From Actinomycetota bacterium (GTDB lineage: Bacteria > Actinomycetota > Actinomycetes > S36-B12): 64,000 bases of DNA. The notes under the pieces were generated by a model that saw only the letters and a program-made list of their open reading frames with translations, did no database searches and was not told the DNA's origin. Below are positions 7,573 to 58,328 of this stretch, piece after piece. The position numbers and the translations under genes are program-made. Numbering within the stretch: the first letter of the stretch is position 1; each line of letters opens with the position of its first letter. The stretch lies in the NCBI GenBank assembly GCA_947449035.1, contig CANFQC010000005.1:6765-70764 (forward strand). Direction: 5' to 3'.

Positions 7573-7605
7573 CGCCCCCAGCGTAATCGCACTAGCCTGG
7601 TGGTC

Positions 7606-9527: not shown

Positions 9528-9634
9528 TCCTGCATGTGATCACGTGTGAGAGGGACTCAGGCTGTTCGTCAGTGAGCTGGCCCGATGCCGTGCCACTCAC
9601 CGTGAACCTCGATGACTCAGTAGGCTCGTCAGTG

Positions 9635-10252: not shown

Positions 10253-10512
10253 GCTGCGGTAACCGTCACGCCACCCCGTGCACCGAGGTTCTCTCGCTGG
10301 TTTATGTCTACATCGACAACGAGTGCGAAGAGATGCAGAGCATTGAGGTCACGACTCATCTTGAGGAGTGCGGCCCGTGCGCCGACATCGTGCAGGTCGA
10401 GCGAGTCATCAAGGCACGAGTCAAGAGCTCCTGCGAATGCACTGAAGCACCTGAGACACTACGAGCCTCGATCGTTACCTCGATCCGAGCGACGTACTAC
10501 CGAAGCGAATAG
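10249..10512 (+). CDS. rshA: Zinc-binding anti-sigma factor (ZAS; RshA/RsrA type)
   Basis: HxxxCxxC motif (HLEECGPC) plus an upstream Cys (TPCTEV). ATGA overlap with the sigH stop. Confidence 0.85.
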
Positions 10513-10520
10513 GAGCCCCC

Positions 10521-10736
10521 ATGTCTGTGACCGTGCGTGCCGAGATGGTGGCCTCTGTTCATTCCGTACTCGTCGAGGCCGGCCAGGCCGTCGAGGTCGG
10601 CGATACCTTGATGATTCTCGAATCCATGAAGATGGAGATTCCGGTGCTCTCCGAATCGGCCGGCACTGTGAGTGAGATCGCCGTCGCCCCCGGCGACGTC
10701 ATTCGCGAGGGCGATGTCCTCGCGATCGTCATCTGA
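10521..10736 (+). CDS. Small stand-alone biotinyl/lipoyl-carrier domain protein (TB7.3/Rv3221c-like)
   Basis: 71 aa with an intact biotinylation hairpin LESMKMEIPV. AGGAG-type RBS (taggagccccc ATG). Same position as Rv3221c between rshA and pdtaS. Confidence 0.8.
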   Translation: MSVTVRAEMVASVHSVLVEAGQAVEVGDTLMILESMKMEIPVLSESAGTVSEIAVAPGDVIREGDVLAIVI

Positions 10737-10803
10737 ACCATCTCCGAAGCCTCTGCTCGGAGTGTTCAGCGTCTCGTCAGCCCCTCGAAGGTAATCTCGT
10801 CAC

Positions 10804-12219: not shown

Positions 12220-12226
12220 GAAGTGG

Positions 12227-12481
12227 CTAGGCGTTGCTGCGAGCCCGCAGGCGGGCATTGCGGCGCTTGAGAGCGCGGCGCTCATCCTCGGAGAGACCGC
12301 CCCAGACACCGGCATCCTGACCGGACTCGAGGGCCCAGCGCAGGCATTCGTCGACCACGCTACAGCGACGGCAGACGACCTTGGCTTCTTCGATCTGCAC
12401 CAGCGCGGGGCCGGTATTGCCGATCGGGAAGAACAACTCCGGGTCTTCGTCACGGCAGGCACTCTCGTGGCGCCAGTCCAT
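12227..12481 (-). CDS. whiB1: WhiB-family [4Fe-4S] transcriptional regulator, WhiB1-like
   Basis: Four Cys (C..CRRCSVVDEC), GVWGG turn and a basic C-terminal tail. Start taken at MDWRHESACRDEDPELFFP. Confidence 0.9.
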   Translation of the reverse strand: MDWRHESACRDEDPELFFPIGNTGPALVQIEEAKVVCRRCSVVDECLRWALESGQDAGVWGGLSEDERRALKRRNARLRARSNA

Positions 12482-12524
12482 GCGGATCACTCCATTAGGC
12501 GAGGGCATCGGGGTCACCGACACT

Positions 12525-12540
12525 CGTGATTGCTTTCACG
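12525..12540. promoter_or_regulatory. Candidate CRP/GlxR-family operator (CGTGA-N6-TCACG) in the whiB1 upstream region
   Basis: Perfect inverted repeat cGTGAttgcttTCACg, 44-59 nt upstream of the whiB1 ATG. In M. tuberculosis, whiB1 is CRP(Rv3676)-regulated through TGTGA-N6-TCACA-like sites. Confidence 0.45.
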
Positions 12541-12721
12541 AGACTGGCACATCAAAGGGGGCGACCCAGGGGTCTCCCGGTCGTCCCCGGAGGAAGAAAG
12601 CCAGCCCGATCCAGCAAAGGGCCCTCATAGGTTCGCAGATGTTGCTGCTGTGAACAAGGGGAATCACCGAAAATTGAATGCTTAACTTGTCAGGTTGGTC
12701 ACAAGTGCGGCATTTGTCCGT

Positions 12722-13651
12722 TTATTGAACAGCAACCACCCTGAGGGCAGCGGGCACCGAGCTGAACTCGGCCACGGTCACCTCAGGGGTTGACTCACCA
12801 TCGACCTGCATCGGCATCGGGCGGCTGCAGGCGATGGTGAAGGAGTCCAGATCGTGGCGCACCACGATCGAGTCCTTGGTCGAGCCGGCGGTCGAATGGG
12901 CAAGCATGCGGCGCGCTGCTCGCATGGTCGAGACAACCCGAAGCTTGCGCATCGCGAAGACATCGAGACCGGAGTCGAAGGAGGCCTGAGGGCACGGGTC
13001 AATGGGCCAGGACCCGAAATAGGTCCAAGGTGCGGTGTTCTGGACGATGGCCAAGAAGACGCCATCATCGGTTCCCGCCACCGAGTTCAAGGTGAGCGCT
13101 GGATTCTTGCGGTCAGTGCGCGCGAAGTACTGACGCAAGGTGGTCATCAGATAGCGCGTCGGTGAGGCGGTACGACCGGCGCTGCGCTGCGCCTCCATGT
13201 CAGAGATGATCTCGGCATCGAGGCCGACACCGGCATTACTGGTGAACCATCGGCCGTTGACCTGTCCGAGACCGATGGTGCGGGTGCGGTTCGACCTGAT
13301 CGCTTCCATGATCTCGCCGGTGGCTTCGACTGCATCGACCGGAATGCCGAGTGCGCGGGCGAAGACGTTGCCGCTGCCGCCGGGCACGGTAGCAAGGATC
13401 GGGACGTCTTCACCGATGCCCTCCTGGAGCATCCCGTTCACGACCTCGTTCACTACGCCGTCTCCACCGAGCGTGATGACGATGTCGAGGCCCTGCGCCC
13501 TGGCGGCCCGGCCAAGTTCGAATCCATGGCCTCGGTGGGTGGTCATCGTGACCTGAAGATCGAGTTCATTCGACAGTGCATTGACGATGACGTCAGTGAC
13601 TCGAGCAGAGGTGGTGGTCGCACGGGGATTGACGACTAGTAGCCCGCGCAT
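12722..13651 (-). CDS. Diacylglycerol/lipid kinase family protein (DAGK catalytic domain)
   Basis: NP.A/GGDG motif (ITLGGDGVVNEVVNG) and VPGGSGNVFARALG. The start at MRGLLVVNP is preceded by GGGAGGC. Confidence 0.8.
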   Translation of the reverse strand: MRGLLVVNPRATTTSARVTDVIVNALSNELDLQVTMTTHRGHGFELGRAARAQGLDIVITLGGDGVVNEVVNGMLQEGIGEDVPILATVPGGSGNVFARALGIPVDAVEATGEIMEAIRSNRTRTIGLGQVNGRWFTSNAGVGLDAEIISDMEAQRSAGRTASPTRYLMTTLRQYFARTDRKNPALTLNSVAGTDDGVFLAIVQNTAPWTYFGSWPIDPCPQASFDSGLDVFAMRKLRVVSTMRAARRMLAHSTAGSTKDSIVVRHDLDSFTIACSRPMPMQVDGESTPEVTVAEFSSVPAALRVVAVQ

Positions 13652-13695
13652 GCCTCCCACCATAACCAAGTCATCGCGACGTTTAGGCTGCTCCC

Positions 13696-14109
13696 ATGCC
13701 TCGTCCGACGCGCTCCTTTGCAGCAATTGCCGCCATCGCGGCCATCGAGGGGCTCGGACTCGTCATCTACGCGATCTTCGACATCATCGAGGCTGTGCGG
13801 GTCGGTATCACCGGCCCGGCAGATGTCTCGAATCCGGCTGCGCTGTTCCTGCTTATCGTCATCTATTCGGTGCTCGGTGCCGGGCTGCTGCTCGTGGCTC
13901 GCGCATGGTGGCTCATGCGCACCTGGCAGCGAGGGGCCTTCATTCTCGCTCAGGTGATTGCGCTGCTGGTCTTCTTCGATCTCACGCAGTCGAGTGAGAC
14001 CTTGCCGCGCTCGGTGGGCCTGCTCATCTTCTTGATGGCGATCGCCGGCATCGTGCTGGTCTTCACCCCCGGGGTGCTGCGGGTATTCCGCGAGGCCCAG
14101 CGGCGCTAG
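13696..14109 (+). CDS. Small integral membrane protein (about 4 TM), unknown function
   Basis: Four hydrophobic segments and coding-like GC3 bias. No recognisable motif. Confidence 0.5.
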   Translation: MPRPTRSFAAIAAIAAIEGLGLVIYAIFDIIEAVRVGITGPADVSNPAALFLLIVIYSVLGAGLLLVARAWWLMRTWQRGAFILAQVIALLVFFDLTQSSETLPRSVGLLIFLMAIAGIVLVFTPGVLRVFREAQRR

Positions 14110-14900
14110 TCGGCTGTCAGGCCTTCGCGCAGTTCGCCAAGGGCTCGAGCGAGCAATCGCGATACATGCATCTGTGAGATGCCCACCTGCTCGGCGATCT
14201 CACTTTGGCTCATGTTCTTGAAGAAGCGCATCATGATGATCTGCCGTTCACGCTCGGGTAACTTCTCCAGTAATGGCCGTAGTGATTCGCGGTACTCGAC
14301 CTCTTCCATTCCCGGATCCTCGAATCCGAACGTGGAAGCGACACCACCGCGCTCATCATCACCATCGTCATCGAGTGATTTCGCGCTATAGGCAGCCTGA
14401 GCCTCCAAAACCTCGAGAACCTCTTCGGGTGCAATGCCCACCCGATCGGCAATCTCGCGGACAGTGGGGGATCGGTGCAGTTCACCGGTGAGATCCTCGG
14501 TCGCCGTATAGATCGGTCCGCGCAGTTCTTGAAGCCTGCGGGGCAGGCGAATCGTGGTTGTGCGATCGCGGAAATGGCGCTTGATCTCGCCCACGATGGT
14601 GGGAGTCGCAAACGTACTGAACTCCAGGCCACGTTCGATCTCAAAGCGATCGATAGCGCTGATCAAGCCAATGGTGCCTACCTGCACCAGGTCGTCGTAA
14701 TTCTCACCGCGATCGCGGTAACGCCGTGCGATGTGATGAACGAGCGGCAGGTGCATGGTGATGAGCTCATCGCGGGCAGCGCTGAAGTCGGCCGTGCCCC
14801 CCGATGACGAAGCCAGCAGTTCGAGCAACACACGCTCTCGCGCACGCTGCTCATCACCCCACCTCTCATCACCGGGTGGGCTGGTCTCGGCTGAGGTCAC
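14106..14900 (-). CDS. Group-3 sigma-70 factor of the SigF/SigB family
   Basis: Regions 2-4 are recognisable (DLVQVGTIGLISAIDRF, FSTFATPTIVGEIKRHFRD, SQSEIAEQVGISQMHVSRL). Its start overlaps the stop of the upstream RsbW-like anti-sigma gene (ATGA-type, 14897-14900). Confidence 0.85.
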   Translation of the reverse strand: MTSAETSPPGDERWGDEQRARERVLLELLASSSGGTADFSAARDELITMHLPLVHHIARRYRDRGENYDDLVQVGTIGLISAIDRFEIERGLEFSTFATPTIVGEIKRHFRDRTTTIRLPRRLQELRGPIYTATEDLTGELHRSPTVREIADRVGIAPEEVLEVLEAQAAYSAKSLDDDGDDERGGVASTFGFEDPGMEEVEYRESLRPLLEKLPERERQIIMMRFFKNMSQSEIAEQVGISQMHVSRLLARALGELREGLTAD

Positions 14901-15277
14901 GCGCTGACCGGCTCGTGACGCTTGACGTGCAGGGTGAGGCAGACCTCGTCGGCTTCGACGGATGCTGTGACGATGTCGACCAAAGCCGTGAGAACGGTCC
15001 AGCCGAAGGTATTGGTCGCCGGCACTGCCCCGCTAGCGGTTGTGCCGCGCACCTCGATGCGAAGTGAACCGTGTGCTTCGACGAACACGCAACGCAACTC
15101 GCTGCCGGGCACCGCATCGAGTACGAGTTGTGCTGCTGCCTCATCGACAGCGAGGCGAAGGTCTTCGAGCTGATCGATCGGCAGATCGGCGCGCACGGCC
15201 ATTGCGGCAGCCATGGTGCGGGCCAGCGAGACGTACTGAGTCTGGGCGGGGAAGCTCACGGTCACGGCGTTGGTCAT
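14897..15277 (-). CDS. Anti-sigma factor, RsbW/UsfX-like (HATPase-fold)
   Basis: 126 aa, located immediately upstream of and overlapping the SigF-family gene. The start at MTNAVTVSF is preceded by a GGAG RBS. Weak resemblance to UsfX. Confidence 0.6.
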   Translation of the reverse strand: MTNAVTVSFPAQTQYVSLARTMAAAMAVRADLPIDQLEDLRLAVDEAAAQLVLDAVPGSELRCVFVEAHGSLRIEVRGTTASGAVPATNTFGWTVLTALVDIVTASVEADEVCLTLHVKRHEPVSA

Positions 15278-15309
15278 GTCACTCCTTCTCGGCCCCAAGT
15301 ATCCAGGCT

Positions 15310-15789
15310 TCAGCGCTCGAGACGGGCCAAGTTCACGAGTGCGTCGCCTTCGACTCGATAGGGCACCCACTCGGTCAAGCCCTCGGCGCCGAGTGCGGCA
15401 TAGAAATCGCGACTTGGGGTATTCCAGTCGAGCACGCTCCAGTCGAGGCGGCCGTACCCCTTCTCGACACATTCCTGTGCAAGGCGAATAAGCAGTGCCT
15501 TTCCGAAGCCACGGCCGCGGAAGGCAGGGCGCACATAGAGATCCTCAAGAAAGATGCCGTGGCGGCCGAGCCACGTCGAGTAGTTCAGGAAGTAGCACGC
15601 GTAGGCGACCACCTCGCCCTCATGCTCGACGACCAGAGCGTGCACGCGCGGATTCTCGCCGAAGAGGTCGCGAGTGAAGTCAGCCTCCGTGGCGATTGCC
15701 TGCTCAGGCAACTTCTCGTACTCAGCGAGCTCGAGGACCATCGCGATCAACTCAGGAACATCGCGGGGCTCTGCGGGGCGAAGGCTCAT
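15310..15789 (-). CDS. GNAT-family N-acetyltransferase (diamine/spermidine acetyltransferase-like)
   Basis: Acetyl-CoA-binding motif RGRGFGKALL, and LEDLYVRPAFRG. Confidence 0.8.
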   Translation of the reverse strand: MSLRPAEPRDVPELIAMVLELAEYEKLPEQAIATEADFTRDLFGENPRVHALVVEHEGEVVAYACYFLNYSTWLGRHGIFLEDLYVRPAFRGRGFGKALLIRLAQECVEKGYGRLDWSVLDWNTPSRDFYAALGAEGLTEWVPYRVEGDALVNLARLER

Positions 15790-15857
15790 GCCCTAAGTAT
15801 TCGCTCTCCGAGATTCAGGTGCGCGAAGACCCACGTATGCGCACGGGAGGGAGCCTC

Positions 15858-16631
15858 GTGAGGAAGTATGTCCCCGTGACGAATCTGGACTGGCTGATCG
15901 CCATTGCACTCGCGGCAAGCCTGGCCGTGGCCCATCTGACAGCTTCAAAGGTCGCCGCGTGGCCGCAAAAGACGCAGGACTCCCTCGCCTCGGTGGGCGG
16001 TGGCGTGGCAATCGCCTACGTGTTCGTGCATCTCATGCCTGAGCTCGCCACCGGTGGCAAGGAGCTCTCGGATGCCAATGTCGTGCCATTCGCGCCGACA
16101 CCGGTGGCTGAGGCAACGCTTTTCCTTGTCGCTCTTATTGGTCTGGTGATCTATTTCGCCCTCGACGTCCGGTCGGATGAAGGTCGACTCTCGACGAAAC
16201 GGGCTTTCCGTATTCACCTGGTGTCGTTTGCCGTGATCAGCGGTCTCTACGCCTACACGATGCCGTCGCTCGTCTCCACCGGCTGGGATTACGCAGTGCT
16301 CCTGACATCAGTGGTCTTCGCTCACACTCTGCTCGCGGATCGAGCGTTGGCACGTGCTCATCCGCACCAGTTCAATTACGAGACTCGCTGGGTGGGTATC
16401 GTCGCCATCGTGCTGGGCCTCGCCGCCGCATACTTCTTGCCGCCCGCATCCGATGTCGCCCTCGCAATTGCCACGGCATTCCTCGGTGGCAGCCTCTTGA
16501 TGACTACCTTCCGCGAAGAATTGCCCGCGGCATCACGAGCACGGCTTCCGTGGTTCCTGCTCGGAACTGCGGTGATGACCGGCCTGCTGATCTTCGTCCT
16601 GGACATCAGCAGCCGCGGGCACGCCGCCTGA
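15858..16631 (+). CDS. Polytopic membrane protein, possibly a distant ZIP-like metal transporter
   Basis: About 8 TM helices. FVHLMPELA resembles the ZIP HExPxE helix. The GTG start is preceded by GGGAGGGAG. It ends at a hairpin shared with sodN. The functional call is tentative. Confidence 0.4.
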   Translation: MRKYVPVTNLDWLIAIALAASLAVAHLTASKVAAWPQKTQDSLASVGGGVAIAYVFVHLMPELATGGKELSDANVVPFAPTPVAEATLFLVALIGLVIYFALDVRSDEGRLSTKRAFRIHLVSFAVISGLYAYTMPSLVSTGWDYAVLLTSVVFAHTLLADRALARAHPHQFNYETRWVGIVAIVLGLAAAYFLPPASDVALAIATAFLGGSLLMTTFREELPAASRARLPWFLLGTAVMTGLLIFVLDISSRGHAA

Positions 16632-16657
16632 TCCACACGTCGTTCAAGGGTTGAACA

Positions 16658-16696
16658 ATGATGAAGCCCCCGCCGATTCGGCGGGGGCTTCATCAT
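16658..16696. terminator. Bidirectional intrinsic terminator hairpin (perfect 17-bp stem)
   Basis: atgatgaagcccccgcc-gattc-ggcgggggcttcatcat, between the convergent membrane-protein gene and sodN. Confidence 0.75.
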
Positions 16697-16711
16697 GAAG
16701 TGCATGTCGAA

Positions 16712-17113
16712 CTACGCCTTCTTGGTCTCCCAGAAGATCGCGGCAATCTCGTCGATCTTGGCGAGCAGCGCATCGGCGACTACAACGTCGGTGGTCGACT
16801 TGGTGCCGCCGGCACCGGCGAGCTTGGTGGCCTCGTTGAAGAGGGCGTTCAGGTTCGGGTACTTCTCGAAGTGCGGGGCCTTGAAGTAGTCGGTCCAAAG
16901 GACCCAGAGGTGCTCCTTGACCATGCTCGAACGGTCTTCCTTGATCGCGATGGCGCGAGCCTTGAACTCTGCATCGGAGGAGTCGTTGAACTTGACCATG
17001 CATGCCTTGACGGACTCAGCCTCGATGCGGGCCTGAGCGGGGTCGTACACGCCGCAGGGGAGATCGCAGTGAGCGTAAGCAGTTGTGCGGGGAGTGAAGA
17101 TGCGGGACAGCAT
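16712..17113 (-). CDS. sodN: Nickel-containing superoxide dismutase precursor
   Basis: A 14-aa propeptide MLSRIFTPRTTAYA is followed by the Ni-hook HCDLPCGVYDP. 133 aa in total. Confidence 0.95.
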   Translation of the reverse strand: MLSRIFTPRTTAYAHCDLPCGVYDPAQARIEAESVKACMVKFNDSSDAEFKARAIAIKEDRSSMVKEHLWVLWTDYFKAPHFEKYPNLNALFNEATKLAGAGGTKSTTDVVVADALLAKIDEIAAIFWETKKA

Positions 17114-17207
17114 GTGAACCCTTTCGGTTGGCGGAACAGCCCCGGGAGGCCCCGTATGGCTATGAGGGGAGCCTACCCTCGGCGGCAAGAGGCGGCAGGA
17201 TGACCTC

Positions 17208-17516
17208 ATGGGGATTGGCTCACATCTGACCACGGTCCAGATCATCGGTCTGTCGATGGAGCCTGCCCTGAGGAATGGCGAGTGCTGGGTGGTGCGCCTT
17301 GGCGCCAAGGTGTCAGTCGGAGATGTCGTGCTGGCCGTTCACCCGCTGCGCCCAGACCTGCAGATCGTGAAGCGGGTCGTTCGGGCTGAGGGGGCGAGCT
17401 GGTGGGTTGAGGGGGATAACCCCGATTCCAGTGATGACAGCCGCAGTTTTGGACCGGTTGACGCCGTCCTCGGCACGCTGGTCTTTCGCTACTCACCCCT
17501 CTTTCGGAGGGCATGA
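17208..17516 (+). CDS. sodX: Ni-SOD maturation protease (S26 signal-peptidase family)
   Basis: Divergent from sodN. Catalytic Ser motif GLSMEPAL and ...VKRVV... typical of S26 peptidases. Confidence 0.8.
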   Translation: MGIGSHLTTVQIIGLSMEPALRNGECWVVRLGAKVSVGDVVLAVHPLRPDLQIVKRVVRAEGASWWVEGDNPDSSDDSRSFGPVDAVLGTLVFRYSPLFRRA

Positions 17517-17672
17517 GGGTTTCCTCTGCTTTTCTCCCTAAGGCGCAGGGGAGGGGTGCCACGTTGCGGCCGCGTTAATTCACGTCACGAATGCGCAACT
17601 CTCCCTCCCCGGTTCGCCCGTTTTGTTAGCCTCCGTCCGTCGATTACTGCGCCCAGCGCCTGTGGAGGATGA

Positions 17673-18743
17673 GTGGCAACCGGACCAGCGTTGAGCATCG
17701 CCCGCGTGTCGAAGGCGTTCGCCACGCCTGAGGGCGGCGAGGTCAGGGCACTCGACGACGTCAGCCTGGACGTCACTGATGGTTCCTTTGTCGTACTCCT
17801 GGGGCCATCCGGCTGCGGCAAGACCACCTTGCTGCGCTGCATCGCCGGCCTGGAGACCCCTGACTCGGGTGAGATCCTGCTCCGTGGTGAGCGCATCGAT
17901 CACGTTCCCGTCTGGAAGCGTCGGGTCAACACCGTCTTCCAGTCCTACGCACTCTTTCCGCACATGACCGTCGCCCAGAACATTGCCTTCGGTCTCCAGA
18001 TGGACAAAGTGGGCAAGGCTGAGATTGAGCGCAAGGTAGGGGAGTCGCTCGAGATGGTGCGACTGTCTGGCCTGGGTTCCCGCAAACCCTCGCAGCTCTC
18101 TGGCGGCCAGCAGCAGCGTGTAGCCCTGGCTCGCGCTCTTGCGAAGGACCCCGAGGTACTTCTCCTCGACGAGCCGCTTTCGGCACTCGATCTCAAGCTG
18201 CGCCGCGGAATGCAGACCGAGCTCAAGCGACTGCAGCGCGAAACCTCGATCACCTTCGTGCTCGTCACGCATGATCAAGGCGAGGCGATGGCCATGGGTG
18301 ACCAGGTCGCAGTGTTCGACTCCGGTCGCATCGTTCAGGTCGGAAACCCGGAGGAGGTCTACCTTCGTCCACGCACGGCCTTCGTGGCCGACTTCATCGG
18401 CGAAGCGAACCTCGTTGCTGCCCAGCGTGATTCGTCATCACTGACGATCGAAGGACTAGGCGCGATCGATGCAGCGACACTGGCGAACCCGGAGGCAGTT
18501 GAGACCGGCGCTGTCACTGTCGCAATTCGGCCCGAGAACATCTCGCTGGCGGAGACCGCTGATGGCGCAGGGGTCGTGGCCGACGTGACCTTCGTCGGTG
18601 GCGATATTCATGTCGACGTCGAACTCGGCGCAAATCGACTCAACGTACGCATTCCGTCGCATGGTGCTCAGCCGCCGCGCGTCGGTGCTCGTGTTCATCC
18701 GACCTTTCTTCCCCAGTCGCTGCGAGTGCTGGCTGACTCGTGA
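17673..18743 (+). CDS. potA: ABC importer ATPase, PotA (spermidine/putrescine) type
   Basis: Walker [10 protein letters not shown], signature [15 protein letters not shown], Walker B LLLDEP and a C-terminal TOBE-like domain. GGAGGA RBS. Confidence 0.8.
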
Positions 18744-19687
18744 CAACTCAGGAGAAGACGCCGAAGAGCGTCGAGTCGCGCACGGCGGGACAGGGATCAT
18801 GGTGGGCCGGAATTCCCGGCATCGCCTACCTGATCGCGCTCGTGCTCGGCCCGATCGTCATCATCGTCATCTACTCCTTCCTGAGTCGAGCCAAGTTCGG
18901 CGTGGGCGTGAAGTGGGTATTCAGCGTTACGGCGTACCAGGATTTGTTCTTCGGAGAGTCACTCGCCGGCGGACGCACCTTCGACCCGACTTACCTCGAG
19001 ATCATCGGAAATTCTTTCTGGTACTCCTTGATCACCAGCGTTGCCTGCCTGGCACTCTCGATCCCGGTCGCGATCTGGATGGCTACTCGGCCTGAGCGAG
19101 TGCGCACTCTGCTGGTGTTCTTGGTGACCATCCCGTTCTGGACCAGTCTGCTCATTCGCACGTACTCGTTCATCATCATCTTGAACGACAACGGCCCCAT
19201 TAACTGGGCATTGAAGTCGCTGCACATCATCACTGAGCCGATCACGATGCTCTACACGCCGTTCGCCACTGTTCTGGGACTCGTCTACACCTTCCTGCCG
19301 TTCATGATCTTGCCCATCTACGCAAGTGCGGAACGATTCGACTTCCGTCTGGCCGAGGCGGCCTACGACCTCGGAGCAAATCGCTGGACGGTGCTCACCC
19401 GCATCGTCATGCCGTCAGTGCGACCGGGCATCGTCGCCGGCACCTTGCTCGTCTTCATCCCGGCGCTGGGATCCTTCCTCGCGCCTGAGCTCCTGGGCGG
19501 CGGCAAGACATCGATGATCGCCAACGTGATCGCTGCGCAGTTCGGCGCCTCGCGCAACTGGCCCTTCGGCGCAGCGCTTTCAGTCCTGCTTCTCGTGATC
19601 ACGCTTCTCGTGCTCGTCGTATTCGCGGTACTTGCCCGGCGTGCTTCGAAGGCCTCAGGTAATGCGAACTGGGAGTCACTCCTGTGA
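18740..19687 (+). CDS. potB: ABC importer permease, PotB type
   Basis: Six TM helices. EAA loop ([21 protein letters not shown]). GTGA overlap with potA. Confidence 0.8.
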
Positions 19688-20502
19688 GCGCGCGGACCAA
19701 GCCGGTGCGAGTCAAGGGCACAGGGGAGTCGCTACGCGACTTCCCGACTTTCAAACTCGTGTCCTACCTGGTTCTCCTCTTCCTCTACCTGCCGCTCGTG
19801 CTGGTCGTGGCCTACTCGTTCAACAGCAACCGCGTCGTCACGGTCTGGAAGGGCTTCACCTTCTCGTGGTACACAAACGTGCTGGCGAACGACGATATTC
19901 AGCGAGCGCTCATGAATTCGCTACGCGTGGCGATCGTGGCCACTGTGGTGTCCGTCATCATTGCGACAGGTCTCGCCATCGGACTTCTCCGCATGCATCG
20001 TGCTGGGCGCACTTTCGCCTGGGGACTCATCGGCGCACCCCTCATCATTCCCGAGATCGTCTTCGCTATCGGTACGCTGGCGTTGTTCGTGCAGATCAGG
20101 ATTCCGCTCGGGGTCAACGCCATCACGCTCGCCCACATTGCGTTCTGCGTGCCGTTCGCTCTTCTCCCCATTCGTGCACGGCTCCGCGGAGTCGACTCAG
20201 CCGTCTACGAGGCAGCCGCTGACCTGGGTGCCAACGAATGGGTGATTTTCCGTCGCATCACCCTGCCGCTGCTGATGCCCGGCATCGTCGCCGGCGCGCT
20301 TCTCGCTTTCATCATCAGCCTTGACGATTTCATCGTCAGCTACTTCCTGGCAGGGCCTGGCGGAACAACGCTTCCAGTCTATATCTTCGGCATGATCCGC
20401 AACGCGATCACTCCGGGTGTCAACGCTCTGTCCAGCATGCTGCTCGCGGTCAGCATCCTCATCGTCATGATTTCCTACTTACTAACAAGGAAGAAGAGGT
20501 AA
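19684..20502 (+). CDS. potC: ABC importer permease, PotC type
   Basis: EAA loop (YEAAADLGANEWVIFRRITLP). Overlaps the potB stop. Confidence 0.8.
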   Translation: MSARTKPVRVKGTGESLRDFPTFKLVSYLVLLFLYLPLVLVVAYSFNSNRVVTVWKGFTFSWYTNVLANDDIQRALMNSLRVAIVATVVSVIIATGLAIGLLRMHRAGRTFAWGLIGAPLIIPEIVFAIGTLALFVQIRIPLGVNAITLAHIAFCVPFALLPIRARLRGVDSAVYEAAADLGANEWVIFRRITLPLLMPGIVAGALLAFIISLDDFIVSYFLAGPGGTTLPVYIFGMIRNAITPGVNALSSMLLAVSILIVMISYLLTRKKR

Positions 20503-20506
20503 CGGC

Positions 20507-21652
20507 ATGTCAGCAATAAGCACCAAGGGGCGCATCGGAATGCTCCTCACCATGGGCGCGGTAAGCGTGCTCGCCCTCTCTGCCTGCGGTGGCGAGACGA
20601 CCGTCGGAGGCGGAGCTTCTGCTGAGGCTGCAGCCCCCAGCGCAGCTGCCTCTGTCGCAGCGGCCGACTTCCCAACCCCTAACGGCGGTGAGCTCAATCT
20701 CTACAACTGGACCGATTACATCTCGCCCGATCTGCTGAAGCGATTCGAGACGGAGACCGGCATCAAGGTCAACCTCGACACATACGACAGCAACGAGACT
20801 CTGTTGGCGAAGCTGCAGGCGGGCGGCGCCAACTATGACGTCATCCTGCCCAGCGATTACATGGTCAAGCAGATGATCGATCTCGGATTGCTCGAGAAGG
20901 TTGCCCCGTCCACCTTCCCGAATGGTGGCGGCATCAAGCCTGAGTTCCTGGACGTCTACTTCGACCAGGGTCGCCAGTACACCGCGCCGTACATGTACGG
21001 CACCACCGGCATCGCGGTCGATCCGACCAAGACGTCACGGCCGGTCACCAGCTGGGCGGACTTCTTCTCGGCTGACAACCCCGCGGCAGGCAAGGTCGGC
21101 ACTCTGAACGATCAGGTCGAGGTTATTCACGCCGCACTTCGCGCCGTGGGCTCCAAGCCCTGCTCGACCGACAAGGCCGACTACATCAAGGTCGAAGAGC
21201 TTCTCAAGGGCTGGAAGCCGAATGTGGCCGTCATCAACTCCGACGGTGTCATCGGCCGCATGGCCAGTGGCGAGCAGACCATGCACATGATGTGGAACGG
21301 TGCTTTCACTCGCTCACAGGCCGACAACAAGGCTCTTGAGTACGTCTACCCGACCGAGGGCATGAACCTCTGGCAGGACAACTTCGCGATTCCGGTCGGT
21401 GCGCAGAACGTCGACAACGCGAAGATCTTCATCAACTGGATGATGGATCCGAAGAATATCGGCGAGGCCACCAACTTCGTCGGCTACGACAACGGCATCA
21501 CCGGTTCGTCTGAGTTCATGTCCAAGGACCTGAGCTCGAACCCGGCAGTCATCATCCCCGATGACAAGAAGGCACTCGCCACTCCGACGCCGGCGTGCCC
21601 GACAGAGGCCGTGGATCTGTACGACCAGGTCTGGACCAACTTCAAGAAGTAG
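20507..21652 (+). CDS. potD: Lipoprotein substrate-binding protein, PotD/PotF (polyamine-type) family
   Basis: Lipobox LALSAC. NLYNWTDYI and the YD..LPSDYM signature of the polyamine-binding family. The ligand cannot be inferred from sequence alone. Confidence 0.75.
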   Translation: MSAISTKGRIGMLLTMGAVSVLALSACGGETTVGGGASAEAAAPSAAASVAAADFPTPNGGELNLYNWTDYISPDLLKRFETETGIKVNLDTYDSNETLLAKLQAGGANYDVILPSDYMVKQMIDLGLLEKVAPSTFPNGGGIKPEFLDVYFDQGRQYTAPYMYGTTGIAVDPTKTSRPVTSWADFFSADNPAAGKVGTLNDQVEVIHAALRAVGSKPCSTDKADYIKVEELLKGWKPNVAVINSDGVIGRMASGEQTMHMMWNGAFTRSQADNKALEYVYPTEGMNLWQDNFAIPVGAQNVDNAKIFINWMMDPKNIGEATNFVGYDNGITGSSEFMSKDLSSNPAVIIPDDKKALATPTPACPTEAVDLYDQVWTNFKK

Positions 21653-21665
21653 TACATCGTCGATT

Positions 21666-21691
21666 GGGCGGGGGGCTTCGGCCCCCCGCCC
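21666..21691 (+). terminator. Intrinsic terminator after potD (11-bp G/C stem, TTCG loop)
   Basis: gggcggggggc-ttcg-gccccccgccc followed by ttcgtcg. This separates potABCD from the amidohydrolase/urease-like operon. Confidence 0.7.
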
Positions 21692-21715
21692 TTCGTCGCG
21701 ACATAAGGAGTGCAC

Positions 21716-23332
21716 GTGCCGATCACCCGTATCGAGAATGTCATCGTCTGGACGGGAATCCGCTCCGCTGATGGCGGTTACATCGAGGCCACCTCGGTTG
21801 CGTTTGATAGTGACGGAATCCTGGCTCTCGGCGATGCTGCGAACGCTTTGACCGTCGATCACGTCATCGATGGTGCGGGCGGCTTCGTCTGCGCAGCATT
21901 CCGAGACGGACACGTGCATGCCATCCCGGGCGGATTCGAAGGGGCGATCGCACCCGTGCGCGGCCACTCGACACCGCAGGAGATCGCTGCCGCGGTGGGT
22001 ACCTGGGCACGAGCGAATCCCGACGTTGAATGGGTGCGAGGCGAAGGCTTCGATCACACGCTCGCACCAGAGGGAATCTTCCTGGCTTCCTGGCTCGATG
22101 CAGACGTGCCTGATCGCCCCGTTGTGCTGCGTGCCACTGACTACCACACCGTGTGGGTCAATTCCGAGGCCCTACGCCGAGTGGGCTACGCCGCGGACAC
22201 TCCGCAGCCTCATGACGGCGAGATAGTCCGTAACGAATCAGGGGAGCCCGTCGGCACCCTGCGCGAATGGGGCGCCTGGCGCCCCGTGTACGACTTAATG
22301 CCCAAGATGACGCGCGAGCAGGCACTTGCAGCTCTCAGAATTGCGTCTGATGGATTTGCGGCCGCTGGCCTCGTCTGGGTTCAAGACGCCTGGATTGAAC
22401 CGCACGATGTCGACTCCTGGCTAGCGGGAGTCGATGAGGGCATTGTGGATTTCCGAGCTGACCTGGGTCTGTGGTGCGATCCGAATACCTGGCGCGACCA
22501 GCTCGATCACTTTGCGAAGACCCGTGAGCGAGTCGCGGCAGCGACGTCCGGTCGACTCTCATCAACGACGATCAAGTTCTTCGCCGATGGAGTTATCGAA
22601 TCCGGAACCGGCGCGCTGCTTGAGTCGTACTGCGATTGCCCGCACTCACTCGGCATGCCCAACTGGGATCCGCAGGAGCTCAAGCTCGCCGTAGCTGCGG
22701 TCGATGCTCTCGGCTTCAGCCCGCACATTCACGCGATTGGTGATGCGGCAGCGCGCATGGCCCTTGATGCCATCGAGTACGCCAATTCCGTGAACGGTGC
22801 ACGTGACCGCAGAGCCACCATTGCTCATACTCAGTTGGTCGACGAGGCAGACATCGAGCGTTTCGTGCAGCTCGGCGTCATTGCCAACTTCGAGCCCTAC
22901 TGGGCCAAGTTCGATGCATGGCAAACAGAACTCACTGCCCCGCGGCTTGGCCCTGAGCGCACCGATCGGCAGTACATGATCCGCACGATCCTCGATACGG
23001 GTGCGCCGATTTCCTTCGGCAGCGACTGGCCGGTCACGACGTTCGCTCCGCTCGCGGGCATCCAGGTTGCTGTCACGCGGCAGATGACCGAGGGTGACTT
23101 CCGTGACCCCTGGGTGCCGCAGGAACGCATCACCGTGGAGCAGGCCCTGGCGGCCTACACCTCCGGGGTCAGTTTCCAGGCCGGTGATGAGCGCGGTGGC
23201 GTACTTCGCCCTGGCGCCCGATCCGACGTCGTGCTGCTTGCTCGCGACCCGCGCGCAGTGCCCCCGCTGGAGATCGAAGGCATCGCGGTTGTCGGCACCT
23301 GGTGCGACGGGCACCGAGTGCACGGAGCCTGA
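21716..23332 (+). CDS. Metal-dependent amidohydrolase (Amidohydro_3 / COG1574 type)
   Basis: HxH (FRDGHVHAI), KFFADG, HIHAIGD, IAHTQL and GSDWPV, a binuclear amidohydrolase ligand pattern. AAGGAG RBS, then GTG at 21716 (the ORF is open from 21710). Confidence 0.8.
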   Translation: MPITRIENVIVWTGIRSADGGYIEATSVAFDSDGILALGDAANALTVDHVIDGAGGFVCAAFRDGHVHAIPGGFEGAIAPVRGHSTPQEIAAAVGTWARANPDVEWVRGEGFDHTLAPEGIFLASWLDADVPDRPVVLRATDYHTVWVNSEALRRVGYAADTPQPHDGEIVRNESGEPVGTLREWGAWRPVYDLMPKMTREQALAALRIASDGFAAAGLVWVQDAWIEPHDVDSWLAGVDEGIVDFRADLGLWCDPNTWRDQLDHFAKTRERVAAATSGRLSSTTIKFFADGVIESGTGALLESYCDCPHSLGMPNWDPQELKLAVAAVDALGFSPHIHAIGDAAARMALDAIEYANSVNGARDRRATIAHTQLVDEADIERFVQLGVIANFEPYWAKFDAWQTELTAPRLGPERTDRQYMIRTILDTGAPISFGSDWPVTTFAPLAGIQVAVTRQMTEGDFRDPWVPQERITVEQALAAYTSGVSFQAGDERGGVLRPGARSDVVLLARDPRAVPPLEIEGIAVVGTWCDGHRVHGA

Positions 23333-23333
23333 C

Positions 23334-24086
23334 ATGCCCCTGACTCCCGGCGAGAGTGATCGACTCCTGCTGCATCTCGAGGCCTCCCTCGCGCAGCGTC
23401 GACGTGACCGGGGTCTGCGCCTGAACGTGCCGGAAGCACGTGCGCTCATCGCGGATGCAGTGTGCGAATGGGCGCGCGACGGCCTGAGCCTGGTCGAGAC
23501 GCGTGACCGTGCAGCGAACCTGCTGAGTGCGACTGATGTATTGCCGGGGGTAGCGGAGGCACTCGGCGAAATTCGAGTGGAAGCCCGCTTCGACGACGGC
23601 ACGCGGCTCGTCGTGGTCAAGGATCCCTGCGGCCCCGCCGCAGCTAGTGATGCCCAGGTGCAAGACGCTTGGGTGCCGGTCGCGCGAGCCACCATCGAGT
23701 TCAGCAACGAGGCGCCCACCGCCATCGGCTTGACCTCTCACATTCACCTCGCCGAGGTAAATCCGCGTCTGCGACTGGATCGCTCGGCGGCCTTTGGAAT
23801 GCGCCTGGCAATCCCCACGGGGGAGACAGTGTGGATCAATGCGGGCGAGTCGATTCAGCTGCCGATGACGCCGATCGCGGGCGAGCGCGTAGTCATCGGC
23901 AACTCCGGAGTGATCGACGGGAGTCTCGACGACCCGGCCGTGCGCTCCCGAGCGCTTGAGACCTTACGCAACTGTGGCTACCTGGATGTCGTCGACGGAG
24001 TTCACGTCGGTGATCTCGCTTCAGCTGACACGGCGATCGCATCGTTGATGGCCGCACGGCGTGCTGCGGACGAGGCCACCTCATGA
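23334..24086 (+). CDS. ureAB: Fused urease gamma/beta subunit (two-subunit urease type) with a ~50-aa C-terminal extension
   Basis: Gamma-like N-terminal half (MPLTPGESDRLLLHLEASLAQRRRDRGLRLNVPEA...GTRLVVVKDP). Beta-like half (GLTSHIHLAEVNPRLRLDR..AFGMRLAIPTGETVWINAGE). The start lies 1 nt after the amidohydrolase stop (TGAcATG). Confidence 0.85.
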   Translation: MPLTPGESDRLLLHLEASLAQRRRDRGLRLNVPEARALIADAVCEWARDGLSLVETRDRAANLLSATDVLPGVAEALGEIRVEARFDDGTRLVVVKDPCGPAAASDAQVQDAWVPVARATIEFSNEAPTAIGLTSHIHLAEVNPRLRLDRSAAFGMRLAIPTGETVWINAGESIQLPMTPIAGERVVIGNSGVIDGSLDDPAVRSRALETLRNCGYLDVVDGVHVGDLASADTAIASLMAARRAADEATS

Positions 24087-25735
24087 GCCGCGAATACGGG
24101 CCGCTCGAAGGTGACACGGTAATCCTGGGTGACACCAAGCTGCGCTTGCGCATTGATTCTCGTGTTCCCGATCAAGGCGATGAGTTTCGTGTCGGCTTCG
24201 CGAAGACTGGTCGCGACGGCATGGGCCTTCGTTCACTCGGGGCCCGTGAATCGTGCGACCTGCTCATCACCAATGTCGTGGTCCTCGATCCTGTCGACGG
24301 GGTTCGAGTCGCGAGTATTGGCATTCGCGAGGGACGCATTTGCGGCATCGGCAAGGCAGGTAACCCTGACACCACTGACGGGATCGACATCGTGGTCGGT
24401 ACCGGCACAGCGGTTATCGATGGTGACGGCCTGATTGCCACCCCAGGTGGCATCGATACCCATGTGCACACTCTCAGCCCACGAGTGTTCGAGGCCGAGA
24501 TCTCCTCGGGAGTCACCACGGTGATCGGCCAGGACGCTGGCCCGATGTGGGGAGTGGGCCTTGGCTCCGCGTGGATGATCGAACGCGGCCTACGTGCCAT
24601 GGACATCTTCCCCGTCAATGTTGGGCTACTGGGGCGTGGCTCTTCCTCGCACAGTGCATCGATCCGTGAAGCGGTGAGTGCGCATGTCTGCGGACTCAAG
24701 GTGCACGAGGACACCGGCGCCACCTTGAGCACGATCGACACCGCGCTTCGAGTCGCGGATGAGTTCGACTTCCAGGTAGCACTTCACACCGATGGCCTGA
24801 ACGAGACGATGAGTGTCGAGGACACTCTGTCGGTTCTCGACGGACGAGTGCTGCACGCCTTCCATGTCGAAGGATGCGGCGGTGGTCATGCGCCAAACGT
24901 GCTGCAGCTTGCCGGAGTCGACAACATCCTTGCGTCATCGACAAACCCGACTCTGCCCTACGGAGTCAATGCAGTTGCCGAACATCTCGACATGATCTTG
25001 CTGTGCCACGGAATGAATCCGGGCAATGACAGTGACGTGCGCATTGCTCGCTCACGCGTACGTGGAGTCACGATGGCGGCTGAGGGGCGCCTGCATGACC
25101 TTGGAGTCATCGGAGTGACGTCATCGGACGCTCAGGGCATGGGTCGCGCGGGGGAGACCTGGTGGCGCACCTTCGCCCTCGCCGGAGTTCTTGCCGGCAT
25201 TGATCCCGAAGCCGAGAATTTCGCAGACGACAACGAGCGCATTCTGCGCTACCTCGCGAAGATCACAATCAATCCTGCGCTTGTTCACGGACTCGCGCAT
25301 GAGGTCGGTCGTCTGGCGGTCGGACACCTCGCCGACATCGTGCTGTGGCGCCCCGAGTATTTCGCTGCAAAGCCTCAGCTCGTCATCAAGGGCGGATTCC
25401 CGGCCTGGGGTGTCACCGGTGATCCGAATGCAAGCATCGACTCCGCGGAGCCCCTCGTACTCGGCCCGCAGTACGGCGCGCTCGGTGCAGCAGCTTCGGA
25501 TCTTTCCGTGCTCTTCTCGAATGCTGCCGCTGTCGCCGAGAGTGCCCCGCCGGTGGCGCGACGAGTAGTCGCAGTGCGCGACTGTCGCACGATCAGGGCA
25601 CATGACCTCGTGCGGCACGGAGCCGTCGGCCAGGTTCAGGTGAGTAGTGATGGCTCGAGTGTTACCTGGAACGGCGAGTCACTCACCATGGATCCCGTGA
25701 GCGATGTGCCGATCTCGCGCCTGCACTATTGGTAG
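24083..25735 (+). CDS. ureC: Urease alpha-subunit homologue, divergent at several positions that are normally invariant
   Basis: Metal ligands are retained: GGIDTHVH, GLKVHEDTG (carbamyl-Lys), HTDGLNE, FHVEGCGGGHAPN, SSDAQGMGR. ATGA overlap with ureAB. Confidence 0.85.
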   Translation: MSREYGPLEGDTVILGDTKLRLRIDSRVPDQGDEFRVGFAKTGRDGMGLRSLGARESCDLLITNVVVLDPVDGVRVASIGIREGRICGIGKAGNPDTTDGIDIVVGTGTAVIDGDGLIATPGGIDTHVHTLSPRVFEAEISSGVTTVIGQDAGPMWGVGLGSAWMIERGLRAMDIFPVNVGLLGRGSSSHSASIREAVSAHVCGLKVHEDTGATLSTIDTALRVADEFDFQVALHTDGLNETMSVEDTLSVLDGRVLHAFHVEGCGGGHAPNVLQLAGVDNILASSTNPTLPYGVNAVAEHLDMILLCHGMNPGNDSDVRIARSRVRGVTMAAEGRLHDLGVIGVTSSDAQGMGRAGETWWRTFALAGVLAGIDPEAENFADDNERILRYLAKITINPALVHGLAHEVGRLAVGHLADIVLWRPEYFAAKPQLVIKGGFPAWGVTGDPNASIDSAEPLVLGPQYGALGAAASDLSVLFSNAAAVAESAPPVARRVVAVRDCRTIRAHDLVRHGAVGQVQVSSDGSSVTWNGESLTMDPVSDVPISRLHYW

Positions 25736-25747: not shown

Positions 25748-26521
25748 CTAGCTCAGTGCGGAGCGGATAGCCCAGACGAGTTCGGTCGGCGCATCGACCA
25801 TCGCCGGGCCGTACCAGGTGAGCAGACGTCCGCTCACCAAGGCGGCGTGCGCAGCGAAGGCCTCGGGGCCGTCGTCGATGGTGAACAGGTACGGCTCATC
25901 GGGCAAGATCACTAGCTCTGTGTCAGGCACTTGATGCAGGTCCAGCTTGGGGTAGCGATCCGGGTGGAGTCCGAGTGCATTGAAGATGCCGAGCCTGCCG
26001 AGCAGTTCACCCGCATACGTATCGGAGCCGACGAACATCCAGGGCTTTCGCCAGATCGGGATGAGGGCGGTGACGGGGTAGTCGAATACCGGCTCGGGAT
26101 TCGCCCAGTTCGCGCGAGCCTGTTCGAGCCACGGCACTCTTGGCTGGCCAAGGGCCTCGAAGAGTCGCGTCATTGACGCGATGGCTTGGTCGACATTGCG
26201 AATCTCAGTGACCCACACTGCAAGCCCCGCGTCACGAAGCTCGGCAATGTGCTCGGGCTTGTTCTCCTCCTCATTCGCGATGACGAGGTCAGGTGCCATG
26301 GCAATGATCGCGGTGACATCGGGATTTTTGGTGCCACGAATACGCGGGACGTCGAGACCCTCGGGATGGGTGCACCAGTCGGTAGCCGCGATGATCGCGC
26401 CGGGCATGGTGGCCTCAACCGCTTCGGTAAGTGAGGGCACCAAGCTCACGATTCGGGTCACGTGCTCGGGGAGCATCACCTTCGCGCCGAGGTCATCGTG
26501 CAACTCACGTATGGCGCTCAT
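25748..26521 (-). CDS. Signal-less periplasmic-binding-protein-fold protein (BtuF/'helical backbone metal receptor' class)
   Basis: RIVSLVPSLTE..., PDLVIANEEEN, and a cluster-A SBP-like layout. There is no signal peptide or lipobox. Its start overlaps the stop of the threonine aldolase gene (4 nt). Confidence 0.55.
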   Translation of the reverse strand: MSAIRELHDDLGAKVMLPEHVTRIVSLVPSLTEAVEATMPGAIIAATDWCTHPEGLDVPRIRGTKNPDVTAIIAMAPDLVIANEEENKPEHIAELRDAGLAVWVTEIRNVDQAIASMTRLFEALGQPRVPWLEQARANWANPEPVFDYPVTALIPIWRKPWMFVGSDTYAGELLGRLGIFNALGLHPDRYPKLDLHQVPDTELVILPDEPYLFTIDDGPEAFAAHAALVSGRLLTWYGPAMVDAPTELVWAIRSALS

Positions 26522-58326: not shown

Positions 58327-58328
58327 CT

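Follow-up and report, generated by a model that had tools for sequence, protein, structure and literature searches.

What does a urease-like enzyme do when it is encoded without the accessory genes of ureases, directly behind an amidohydrolase and a polyamine-type importer? Urease is the standard example of a nickel enzyme, and the usual view is that a dedicated set of chaperones is required to activate it. The question is raised by a stretch of 64,000 nucleotides (nt) from an Actinomycetota bacterium (S36-B12; assembly GCA_947449035.1, contig CANFQC010000005.1, positions 6,765 to 70,764), hereafter called the window. In this freshwater actinobacterium, seven plus-strand genes, potABCD, Amidohydro_3, ureAB, and ureC, form one array (Table 1), the last two encoding an enzyme that we refer to as Ure(AB)C. 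On the scores and gene neighborhoods reported below, Ure(AB)C belongs to the urease superfamily but falls short of the equivalog-level score for urease and has no linked accessory genes. No earlier urease relative may have served another function or obtained its metal by another route, as this one perhaps does. The reading that we favor, with a probability of about 0.38, is an uptake-plus-two-hydrolase module. Its nitrogen source would be a guanidino or ureido compound that is cationic and resembles a polyamine, and the carbamoyl group would be cleaved by Ure(AB)C.

The actinobacterial ure(AB)C-only cluster type was noted in 2008 in Streptomyces coelicolor (SCO5525-SCO5526) and Streptomyces avermitilis (PMC2492869), and our literature search on two-subunit or accessory-less ureases and on SCO5525-5527 found no functional study of this clade.

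Active site, accessory genes, and clade of the urease-like enzyme

Matches above the cutoffs of PF00547, PF00699, PF00449, and PF01979 place the two subunits among urease-domain proteins. The α subunit aligns with ureases of solved structure at about 45% identity, those of Yersinia and Klebsiella being the best. Alignment to these two enzymes bears out the claim of an earlier note, made from the DNA sequence alone, that α keeps every metal ligand: both histidines of the HxH motif, the carbamylated lysine, two further histidines, and the aspartate are present, as are the substrate-binding histidine and the aspartate of K-x-H-E-D, the Cys-His of the flap, and the arginine. Across 102 α sequences of the clade described below, the same ligands and catalytic residues are kept. 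By these alignments, the urease-type catalytic apparatus is intact and under purifying selection.

The surroundings of this site depart from the canonical form in four places. GGGTGP...TTCTPGPW has become GQDAGPMWGVG-LGSAW, with a four-residue deletion, a change that the earlier note had missed; HEDWG has become HEDTG; DTLNE has become DGLNE; and HTEGAGGGHAPD has become HVEGCGGGHAPN. The canonical active-site motifs GGGTGP...TPGPW, HED[W/Y]G, and HTEGAGGGH are absent and are replaced, clade-wide, by GQDAGPMWGVG, HEDTG, and HVEGCGGGH. We take the replaced positions to correspond to Ala170, Trp225, Thr276, and Ala279 in Sporosarcina pasteurii numbering; the loop beside the Ala170-equivalent position is four residues shorter than in canonical ureases. 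HEDTG, LLCHGM, and VEGCGGGHAPN are all present, as first read, but several of the positions that had been regarded as invariant vary in other ureases. The second histidine of MVCHHL is replaced in Yersinia (MVCHNL) and in accessory-bearing Firmicutes ureases (MAAHSL), the latter also have HEDYG in place of HEDWG, and the aspartate-to-asparagine change at the end of HAPN varies within the clade itself.

The α subunit scored 572.2 against a cutoff of 680 for the urease equivalog TIGR01792, for which the canonical α subunit of locus L014 reached 823 bits, and the fused γ/β subunit scored 225.3 against 243 for NF009671. The sole NCBIfam urease model passed was the subfamily model NF009686, with an α score of 659.5 against 354. 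The γ and β domains are indeed fused, but the clade-specific tail of UreAB comes to about 30 amino acids rather than the approximately 50 first proposed, because the preceding helix (RALETLRNCGYLD) also occurs in a canonical fused subunit. In UreAB of the freshwater group, the β domain begins without the PGE(L/I)L stretch. The pocket or the metal probably differs from that of classical ureases.

Neither phmmer nor profile hidden Markov models found a UreD, UreE, UreF, or UreG homologue in the window, in agreement with the first reading, nor did they find one in about 100 related actinobacterial loci of the ure(AB)C kind, where up to 10 kb of flanking sequence was covered. The Pfam tables of additional related loci likewise contain no ureD/E/F/G. 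The queries were UreE, UreF, UreG, and UreD of a canonical locus, with profiles built from five loci each, and both the single queries and the profiles recovered the counterparts in all six complete canonical control loci. Streptomyces genomes have a complete ureABCFGD set elsewhere (PMC3293853, PMC2492869). Precedents for activity without own accessory genes are UreA2B2 of Helicobacter mustelae (PMC3919588) and, going by the title of a paper cited in PMC8600894, the urease of Bacillus subtilis. The lack of ureDEFG linkage throughout the clade, together with the remodeled surround of the active site, suggests that the metal center is probably assembled without dedicated nickel chaperones, or with chaperones borrowed in trans where a second urease exists.

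A search returned thousands of urease-family homologues. The 120 closest listed are all 78 to 96% identical to the α protein of the window; their sources are mostly metagenomes, freshwater ones among them, and freshwater actinobacterial metagenome-assembled genomes (MAGs), with Nanopelagicales or Actinomycetes as labels. An identical α protein is found on 13 contigs. In a scan of genomes, the α subunit of Streptomyces sp. M41, which served as stand-in for the SCO5525-5526 type in comparisons of identity, signature, and tree position, was 57 to 58% identical to that of the window, with canonical ureases at 42 to 47%; a metagenome scan with clade-specific peptides added 80 soil-type loci with 70 to 94% identity to the Streptomyces protein. 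The 102 α sequences share the signature GQE[AF]GP[MV]WGVG, HED[T/M/I/L/V]G, H[VI]EGCGGGH with an invariant cysteine, DGLNE, and SSDAQGMGRAGE. In a neighbor-joining (NJ) tree, the freshwater and the soil/Streptomyces groups form one long-branch clade, the sister of which is the ureEF(AB)CGD type (Pararobbsia L014 and an Arenicellales MAG, L015) with canonical motifs kept; when representatives were clustered at 50% identity, the clade fell into two or three clusters. The window locus thus belongs to an ure(AB)C-only clade, with fused ureAB followed by ureC and no linked accessory genes, and kinship with the two-gene Streptomyces urease, a locus that the earlier note had mentioned, is upheld by identity, signature, and tree alike.

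Other lineages turned up among the same representatives. Six further non-canonical urease-α lineages (P0125, P0127, P0128, P0129, P0132, and P0136; 43 to 47% identity) carry HED[L/F/M/Y/H] followed by G or A and H[VI]EG[A/S/C/G]GG(G)H. Full-length homologues that have lost the carbamylated lysine and/or histidine ligands also exist (P0126, P0150, P0160, P0180, P0183, P0184, and P0197), with motifs such as LSVHGRTG and LSLHDVAG; these look like pseudo-enzymes or decayed copies.

The coupled amidohydrolase, the importer, and their neighborhoods

The amidohydrolase, ureAB, and ureC genes are one packed unit, as had been claimed. The TGA stop of the amidohydrolase gene (23330-32) and the ATG of ureAB (23334-36) are separated by a single nucleotide (TGAcATG), the end of ureAB shares the letters ATGA (24083-24086) with the beginning of ureC, and an AAGGAG at 21705-21710 lies 5 nt upstream of the GTG start of the amidohydrolase. 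Public gene calls on the 13 contigs with the identical α protein give the same three genes at matching coordinates. In L004 (7476-10001), a 2-Mb MAG contig, both the amidohydrolase gene and ureAB are split into two frames, probably through assembly indels and not as pseudogenes.

The amidohydrolase matches PF07969 with 273.7 bits over profile positions 2 to 472 of 472, and its putative metal ligands, H66, H68, K287, H339, H371, and D437 (an HxH, Lys, His, His, Asp set), are invariant in the amidohydrolase alignment. No NCBIfam model matches it, so the subfamily is uncharacterized. A sequence search for relatives of solved structure found only 3icj and 3igh, both uncharacterized. A Foldseek search with its AlphaFold2 (AF2) model (predicted local distance difference test score, 87.5) ranked the same two first, followed by HutI, TrzN/AtzA, and deaminases at a template modeling score of about 0.55. 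PF07969 takes in amidine and guanidine-type deaminases, and the C-N substrates of YtcJ-like enzymes are very diverse (PMC13081902).

In many genomes of the freshwater group, the amidohydrolase gene stands immediately before ureAB. Orthologues with 61 to 67% identity lie directly upstream of ureAB-ureC in all five cases looked up; in soil loci, those with 37 to 40% identity instead come immediately after ureC. The link to a COG1574-type amidohydrolase suggested by the earlier note is therefore conserved, and since it has been kept through rearrangement and through divergence of α to 57%, we argue that the two enzymes are functionally coupled. The complete potABCD-amidohydrolase-ureAB-ureC cassette is found at four or more different chromosomal sites in different lineages. 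In the window its neighbors are sodX on one side and a TroA-like gene on the other; in relatives it lies between TetR and PdtaS genes, between a beta-eliminating lyase gene and DUF4190, and between pgl and rbpA. The seven-gene cassette behaves as a unit, and the suspected tie to the polyamine-type importer is borne out by it.

The best PDB matches of the binding protein are SpuE and SpuD of Pseudomonas aeruginosa and PotD and PotF of Escherichia coli (E values of 1e-55 to 1e-41), and the importer has the four-gene architecture of PotABCD with a PotD/PotF-type binding protein. An equivalog-level score, which we took as implying the same substrate as the PotABCD spermidine/putrescine importer, was not reached by PotD (184 against 582), PotF (159 against 636), PotB (240 against 348), or PotC (242 against 326); the PotA subfamily model TIGR01187 alone was passed, marginally, with 356.4 against a cutoff of 355.6.

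Among 33 fully informative soil loci, defined by at least 1 kb on both sides of ureAB-ureC, an AguA-like PAD_porph gene occurs within 3 kb in 25, an Amidohydro_3 gene in 2, both in 1, and neither in 5. In the loci checked, PAD_porph adjoins ureC or, in a few cases, ureAB. It is the sole non-backbone family that recurs in unbiased clustering of the neighbors of the soil clade; the same clustering showed no recurring CN_hydrolase or carbamoyltransferase for the second step of agmatine deimination. SCO5527, adjoining ure(AB)C SCO5525-5526, is itself an aguA homologue (PMC2492869, PMC3293853), and the Streptomyces-type locus also includes genes for a TetR regulator and a divergently encoded NCS1 permease; NCS1 permeases recur in these neighborhoods. 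The freshwater chromosome L007 encodes, in order, an amidohydrolase, an NCS1 permease, an open reading frame (ORF) joining TetR to CN_hydrolase, PAD_porph, and then ureAB-ureC; its AguB-like domain is weak, with 62 bits against 410. That ORF (6664-8187, 507 amino acids, TetR_N and TetR_C_6 followed by CN_hydrolase) is either a real fusion or the result of a lost stop in a long-read MAG. In L106, ureAB-ureC-Amidohydro_3 is followed by an agmatinase gene passing two curated cutoffs and then by a gene for an amidase-signature enzyme; upstream of ureAB-ureC in L072 are genes for an APC permease, an arginase-family protein, and AsnC; in L100 and L102 an APH-aminotransferase III fusion lies upstream; and in L113 an Orn/Lys/Arg decarboxylase gene and a TetR gene stand beside the cassette, with a formamidase or acetamidase gene nearby. 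L114 (1-8004) has a Urt/Fmd-type ABC system, one permease of which is fused to DMF_alpha, ahead of Amidohydro_3-ureAB-ureC, with a 766-amino-acid DMFA2_C (dimethylformamidase-like) protein and then a Hist_deacetyl protein whose gene overlaps the Amidohydro_3 start; this array may feed small amides or ureas with substituents into the pair. No linked urea transporter was found in the neighborhoods examined; the canonical locus L014 adjoins Urt-type genes.

With AguA-like PAD_porph in most soil loci, an agmatinase in one relative, and an arginase-family protein in another, the guess of a ureido or guanidino substrate in the earlier note fits these neighbors. The window itself encodes neither PAD_porph nor CN_hydrolase, the two enzymes of the agmatine deiminase (AguA/AguB) pathway. 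Two sets of neighbors in the soil loci were set aside: a flavin amine oxidase that recurs downstream and had been a candidate for polyamine oxidation is, by NCBIfam, a protoporphyrinogen oxidase encoded by a housekeeping backbone gene, and ilvE, leuB, and leuA are Streptomyces backbone genes.

TABLE 1 Features of the cassette and its upstream region in window coordinates
Feature	Position	Strand	Basis or remark
Operator-like imperfect palindrome, potA upstream region	17584..17599	+	Conserved motif in relatives; lead only
potA-like ABC ATPase	17673..18743	+	Pfam ABC_tran and TOBE_2; NCBIfam TIGR01187
potB-like permease	18740..19687	+	4-nt overlap with potA; Pfam and NCBIfam
potC-like permease	19684..20502	+	4-nt overlap with potB; Pfam and NCBIfam
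PotD/PotF/SpuE-like polyamine-type solute-binding protein	20507..21652	+	Pfam SBP_bac_8
Intercistronic G/C hairpin, 11-bp stem, UUCG loop	21666..21691	+	Folding and comparison with related loci
YtcJ-like (COG1574, PF07969) binuclear-metal amidohydrolase, 538 amino acids	21716..23332	+	GTG start; Pfam Amidohydro_3
Fused urease γ/β (UreAB), 250 amino acids	23334..24086	+	Pfam Urease_gamma and Urease_beta
Divergent urease α (UreC-like), 550 amino acids	24083..25735	+	Pfam Urease_alpha and Amidohydro_1

The hairpin between the binding-protein and amidohydrolase genes had been read as a terminator that sets the three-gene unit off from the importer. The 11-bp G/C stem is present, and the region around it (21650-21720, 71 nt) folds with a minimum free energy of -37 kcal/mol (z = -3.7), but the hairpin has no U-tract, and a terminator consensus scan did not call it. 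Because a stem-loop of different sequence is kept at the same position in five related loci (L001, L005, L011, L013, and L025), we regard it as a conserved intercistronic element and not as a clean operon boundary; it is probably an attenuator or an mRNA-stabilizing element after the binding-protein gene.

Upstream of potA, a TTACG-N4-CGTAA palindrome is kept in L025 (about 3447-3462), L005, and L013, and a second motif, CTAACG..GTTAG, is also conserved in the potA promoter region. The relatives have a divergent TetR gene beside the palindrome, whereas the window has a degenerate copy and no adjoining TetR gene. Control by GlnR was considered and dropped: the one GTNAC-N6-GNAAC match in the window, upstream of potA, is not above chance (1.04 expected), and since it is part of the palindrome that in relatives adjoins a divergently transcribed TetR gene, an operator of TetR type is more likely. 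A riboswitch, such as one for guanidine, was also rejected, as a scan of the window and of L007, L012, and L025 against Rfam gave no such element at the gathering thresholds, and at E ≤ 1 there was no credible match in window positions 16500-22000.

Several features around the cassette are recorded here in their own right. In most relatives, ureAB-ureC is flanked by a conserved actinobacterial backbone that runs from SRAP, extracytoplasmic function (ECF) sigma factor, anti-sigma factor, and biotin-lipoyl protein genes to PdtaS, WhiB, and diacylglycerol (DAG) kinase genes. In the window the same backbone (7519-16631; compared with L025, L026, and L028) lies 5 to 14 kb upstream, and the cassette has therefore been relocated in this lineage. 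Directly upstream of potA are sodN, for a nickel superoxide dismutase, and a sodX-like peptidase gene (Peptidase_S24/S26), at 16712-17113 (minus strand) and 17208-17516 (plus strand), a pair found again a few kilobases from ureAB-ureC in related freshwater loci; with these genes for a nickel enzyme and its maturation peptidase, the organism evidently uses nickel, although urease nickel chaperones are not encoded nearby. At 25748-26521 on the minus strand, convergent with ureC across a 12-nt gap, lies a TroA-like gene that matches NF038402 ("helical backbone metal receptor") with 297 bits and has no Pfam match. Apart from the window, L011, with 96% identity, is the one locus in which this adjacency was seen, so it is probably coincidental, if curious beside a metalloenzyme without linked chaperones. 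The housekeeping RNAs of the window are a class A RNase P RNA at 57963-58327 (plus strand, 315.7 bits) and one tRNA at 52171-52244 (plus strand).

A proposed nitrogen-release module and its rivals

In the module that we favor, the PotD-like protein and the ABC transporter, homologous to polyamine transporters, would import the compound, which is most likely of the agmatine family. The YtcJ-like amidohydrolase would then carry out a first C-N hydrolysis at the guanidino carbon, yielding an N-carbamoyl (ureido) amine and NH3, and the carbamyl-lysine-bridged dimetal site of Ure(AB)C, with its catalytic residues in place, would convert the carbamoyl group to CO2 and NH3 and free the amine. The products of AguA and other guanidino-modifying (pentein) hydrolases are ureido compounds and NH3 and do not include urea. 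Because of this, and because no second-step enzyme is encoded in the operons, action of Ure(AB)C on the N-carbamoyl product would be the most economical arrangement. A role in amine catabolism is supported by the agmatinase, arginase-family gene, class III aminotransferase, APC and NCS1 permeases, and Orn/Lys/Arg decarboxylase among the neighbors of relatives, and the proposed first hydrolysis by the deaminases of PF07969 (PMC13081902) and those among the structural neighbors of the AF2 model. We put forward only tentatively a more specific version, in which Ure(AB)C of this clade would physiologically be no urease but an N-carbamoyl-amine amidohydrolase (acting, for example, on N-carbamoylputrescine) that replaces AguB in a new form of the agmatine deiminase route, with a carbamyl-lysine dimetal center built independently of UreDEFG and possibly with a metal other than nickel, and the YtcJ-like partner a new metal-dependent guanidino deiminase. 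Of the earlier interpretation, the two-subunit urease-family enzyme without accessory genes nearby and the linkages stand, but a special tie to H. mustelae UreA2B2 and the invariance of several motifs do not.

A number of observations weigh against the module. Nothing sets the catalytic machinery apart from that of a urease, and every changed residue is in the second shell, where the changes could reflect metal or maturation, not a new substrate. The PAD_porph proteins of relatives score 266 to 307 bits, below the agmatine deiminase equivalog cutoff of 381.8. At the freshwater backbone position GNAT / ureAB-ureC / PdtaS-WhiB, ureAB-ureC often stands alone, and in about half of the freshwater loci it has no adjoining partner gene or transporter, so the enzyme must also act on something available without the cassette. 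Amidohydro_3 occurs together with an AguA-like gene in L007 and with agmatinase in L106, which argues against its being simply isofunctional with either. The agmatinase of L106 and the arginase-family neighbor in L072 would make urea, which favors true urease activity, and the context of L114 is of urea or amide type and not polyamine-like.

Some of these points lead to a reading that we consider only somewhat less probable than the module, namely that Ure(AB)C is a genuine urease in a guanidino-catabolic module, where it would hydrolyze urea that the partner sets free from agmatine or something related to it or from guanidine itself, and that the signature changes reflect accessory-independent metal loading or a different metal. 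All urea-binding and catalytic residues are kept; ureAB-ureC alone in many genomes is what would be expected of an enzyme for a common metabolite, and the diversity of feeder modules suggests a common end product such as urea. The agmatinase of L106, with its two curated cutoffs passed, and the arginase-family gene beside ureAB-ureC in L072 fit this reading, and there are precedents without own accessory genes in H. mustelae UreA2B2 (PMC3919588) and, as far as a cited title tells, B. subtilis (PMC8600894). The dominant soil partner, PAD_porph, however, by its known chemistry gives a ureido compound and NH3, not urea, with no second-step enzyme nearby; the changes around the active site are kept clade-wide on a long branch, α stays below the urease equivalog cutoff, and no urea transporter is linked. 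That the enzyme is instead an ordinary nickel-urease paralogue scavenging environmental urea with the help of UreDEFG encoded elsewhere, its adjacency to the other genes reflecting shared nitrogen regulation only, strikes us as improbable. Accessory genes are found in none of about 100 loci within flanks of up to 10 kb, against 6 of 6 complete controls, the linkage to Amidohydro_3 or PAD_porph is kept across rearrangements and between clades only 57% identical, the accessory-bearing sister clade keeps canonical motifs that the window clade does not, and a urea transporter is not nearby; the passing score for NF009686 (659 bits against 354) and the full ureABCFGD set elsewhere in Streptomyces (PMC3293853, PMC2492869) are what speaks for it.

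Another small amide or urea as substrate, with the polyamine-type importer carrying something other than a polyamine, we likewise rate as a rather doubtful prospect; candidates would be formamide or acetamide, methylated ureas or guanidines, guanylurea or biuret, hydroxyurea, and ureido acids of the creatinine pathway. L114, with its Urt/Fmd-type ABC system, dimethylformamidase-like protein, and histone deacetylase (HDAC)-like amidohydrolase, points this way, as do the formamidase/acetamidase gene of L113, the amidase-signature enzyme of L106, the recurring NCS1 permeases, the diverse C-N substrates of YtcJ-like enzymes (PMC13081902), and the triazine hydrolases and deaminases near the AF2 model. 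Such contexts are few compared with those of PAD_porph and polyamine type, and the binding protein of the window clearly matches polyamine binders. A decaying or non-catalytic relic is very improbable: ligands and catalytic residues that are invariant or nearly so in 102 sequences effectively refute it, even though degenerate homologues without the carbamylated lysine or histidine ligands exist (P0126, P0150, and P0160), and the α proteins are 78 to 96% identical across many lineages, with an identical protein on 13 contigs and tight gene coupling.

The choice between the proposed carbamoyl-cleaving module and its rivals matters because annotation pipelines name every homologue "urease" and because the clade is large, including the long-known but unstudied second "urease" of Streptomyces. 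If the enzyme hydrolyzes substituted ureas or loads its metal unaided, the urea-cycling potential estimated from metagenomic ureC counts would change, as would the list of routes by which aquatic Actinobacteria salvage polyamine and agmatine nitrogen and the view of what assembly of a urease-type metallocenter requires. Were the N-carbamoyl-amine reading to hold, the urease family would have its first member with a non-urea substrate, and one that is widespread in soil and freshwater Actinobacteria. The small cassette, with two enzymes and one binding protein, makes these readings directly testable.

Comparison with known systems

The canonical UreABC ureases of Klebsiella aerogenes, S. pasteurii, and Yersinia have the same domain set as the window enzyme, the same six metal-site residues, and the same flap histidine, aspartate, and arginine. 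The window locus differs from the UreABC-UreDEFG systems in having no linked accessory genes, a fused γ/β subunit, altered second-shell motifs, and an α score below TIGR01792. Closer in the tree, as the nearest accessory-bearing sister group, are the ureEF(AB)CGD ureases (Bradyrhizobium BTAi1, Pseudomonas syringae B728a, L014, and L015), which share the fused ureAB (PMC2492869). Unlike the window enzyme, they keep HEDWG, HTEGAGGGHAPD, and MVCHHL, reach 823 bits, above the equivalog cutoff, and are flanked by ureE, ureF, ureG, and ureD together with Urt-type transporter genes.

H. mustelae UreA2B2 resembles the window enzyme in its two subunits, its γ/β fusion, and the lack of own accessory genes (PMC3919588), and B. 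subtilis ureABC, to judge from the cited title, is likewise encoded without accessory genes of its own, but both are true ureases in urea-related contexts. A special relationship to UreA2B2, which the earlier note had brought in for comparison, does not emerge: in the α comparison its structure (3qga) scores 468.9 bits, below the nickel ureases of Yersinia, Klebsiella, and Sporosarcina (474 to 502).

Like the window locus, the S. coelicolor SCO5525-5526 type has fused ureAB followed by ureC without accessory genes, falls in the same long-branch clade, and, as represented by Streptomyces sp. M41, shares the signature GQE.GP.WGVG / HED[T/M]G / H[VI]EGCGGGH / DGLNE / SSDAQGMGRAGE. It differs in its partners, which are an AguA-like PAD_porph protein encoded downstream, a TetR regulator, and an NCS1 permease encoded divergently (PMC3293853), where the window has a YtcJ-like amidohydrolase upstream and a polyamine-type ABC importer.

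In chemical terms, the module that we propose parallels the agmatine deiminase pathway, in which AguA and either AguB or putrescine carbamoyltransferase take a guanidino compound through a ureido intermediate to the amine, CO2, and NH3. Relatives of the window enzyme adjoin AguA-like genes and a TetR regulator gene, an arrangement like that of aguR-aguBA in Pseudomonas. Unlike that pathway, the window has neither PAD_porph nor CN_hydrolase, and the corresponding steps would fall to a YtcJ-like metallohydrolase and a urease-family enzyme.

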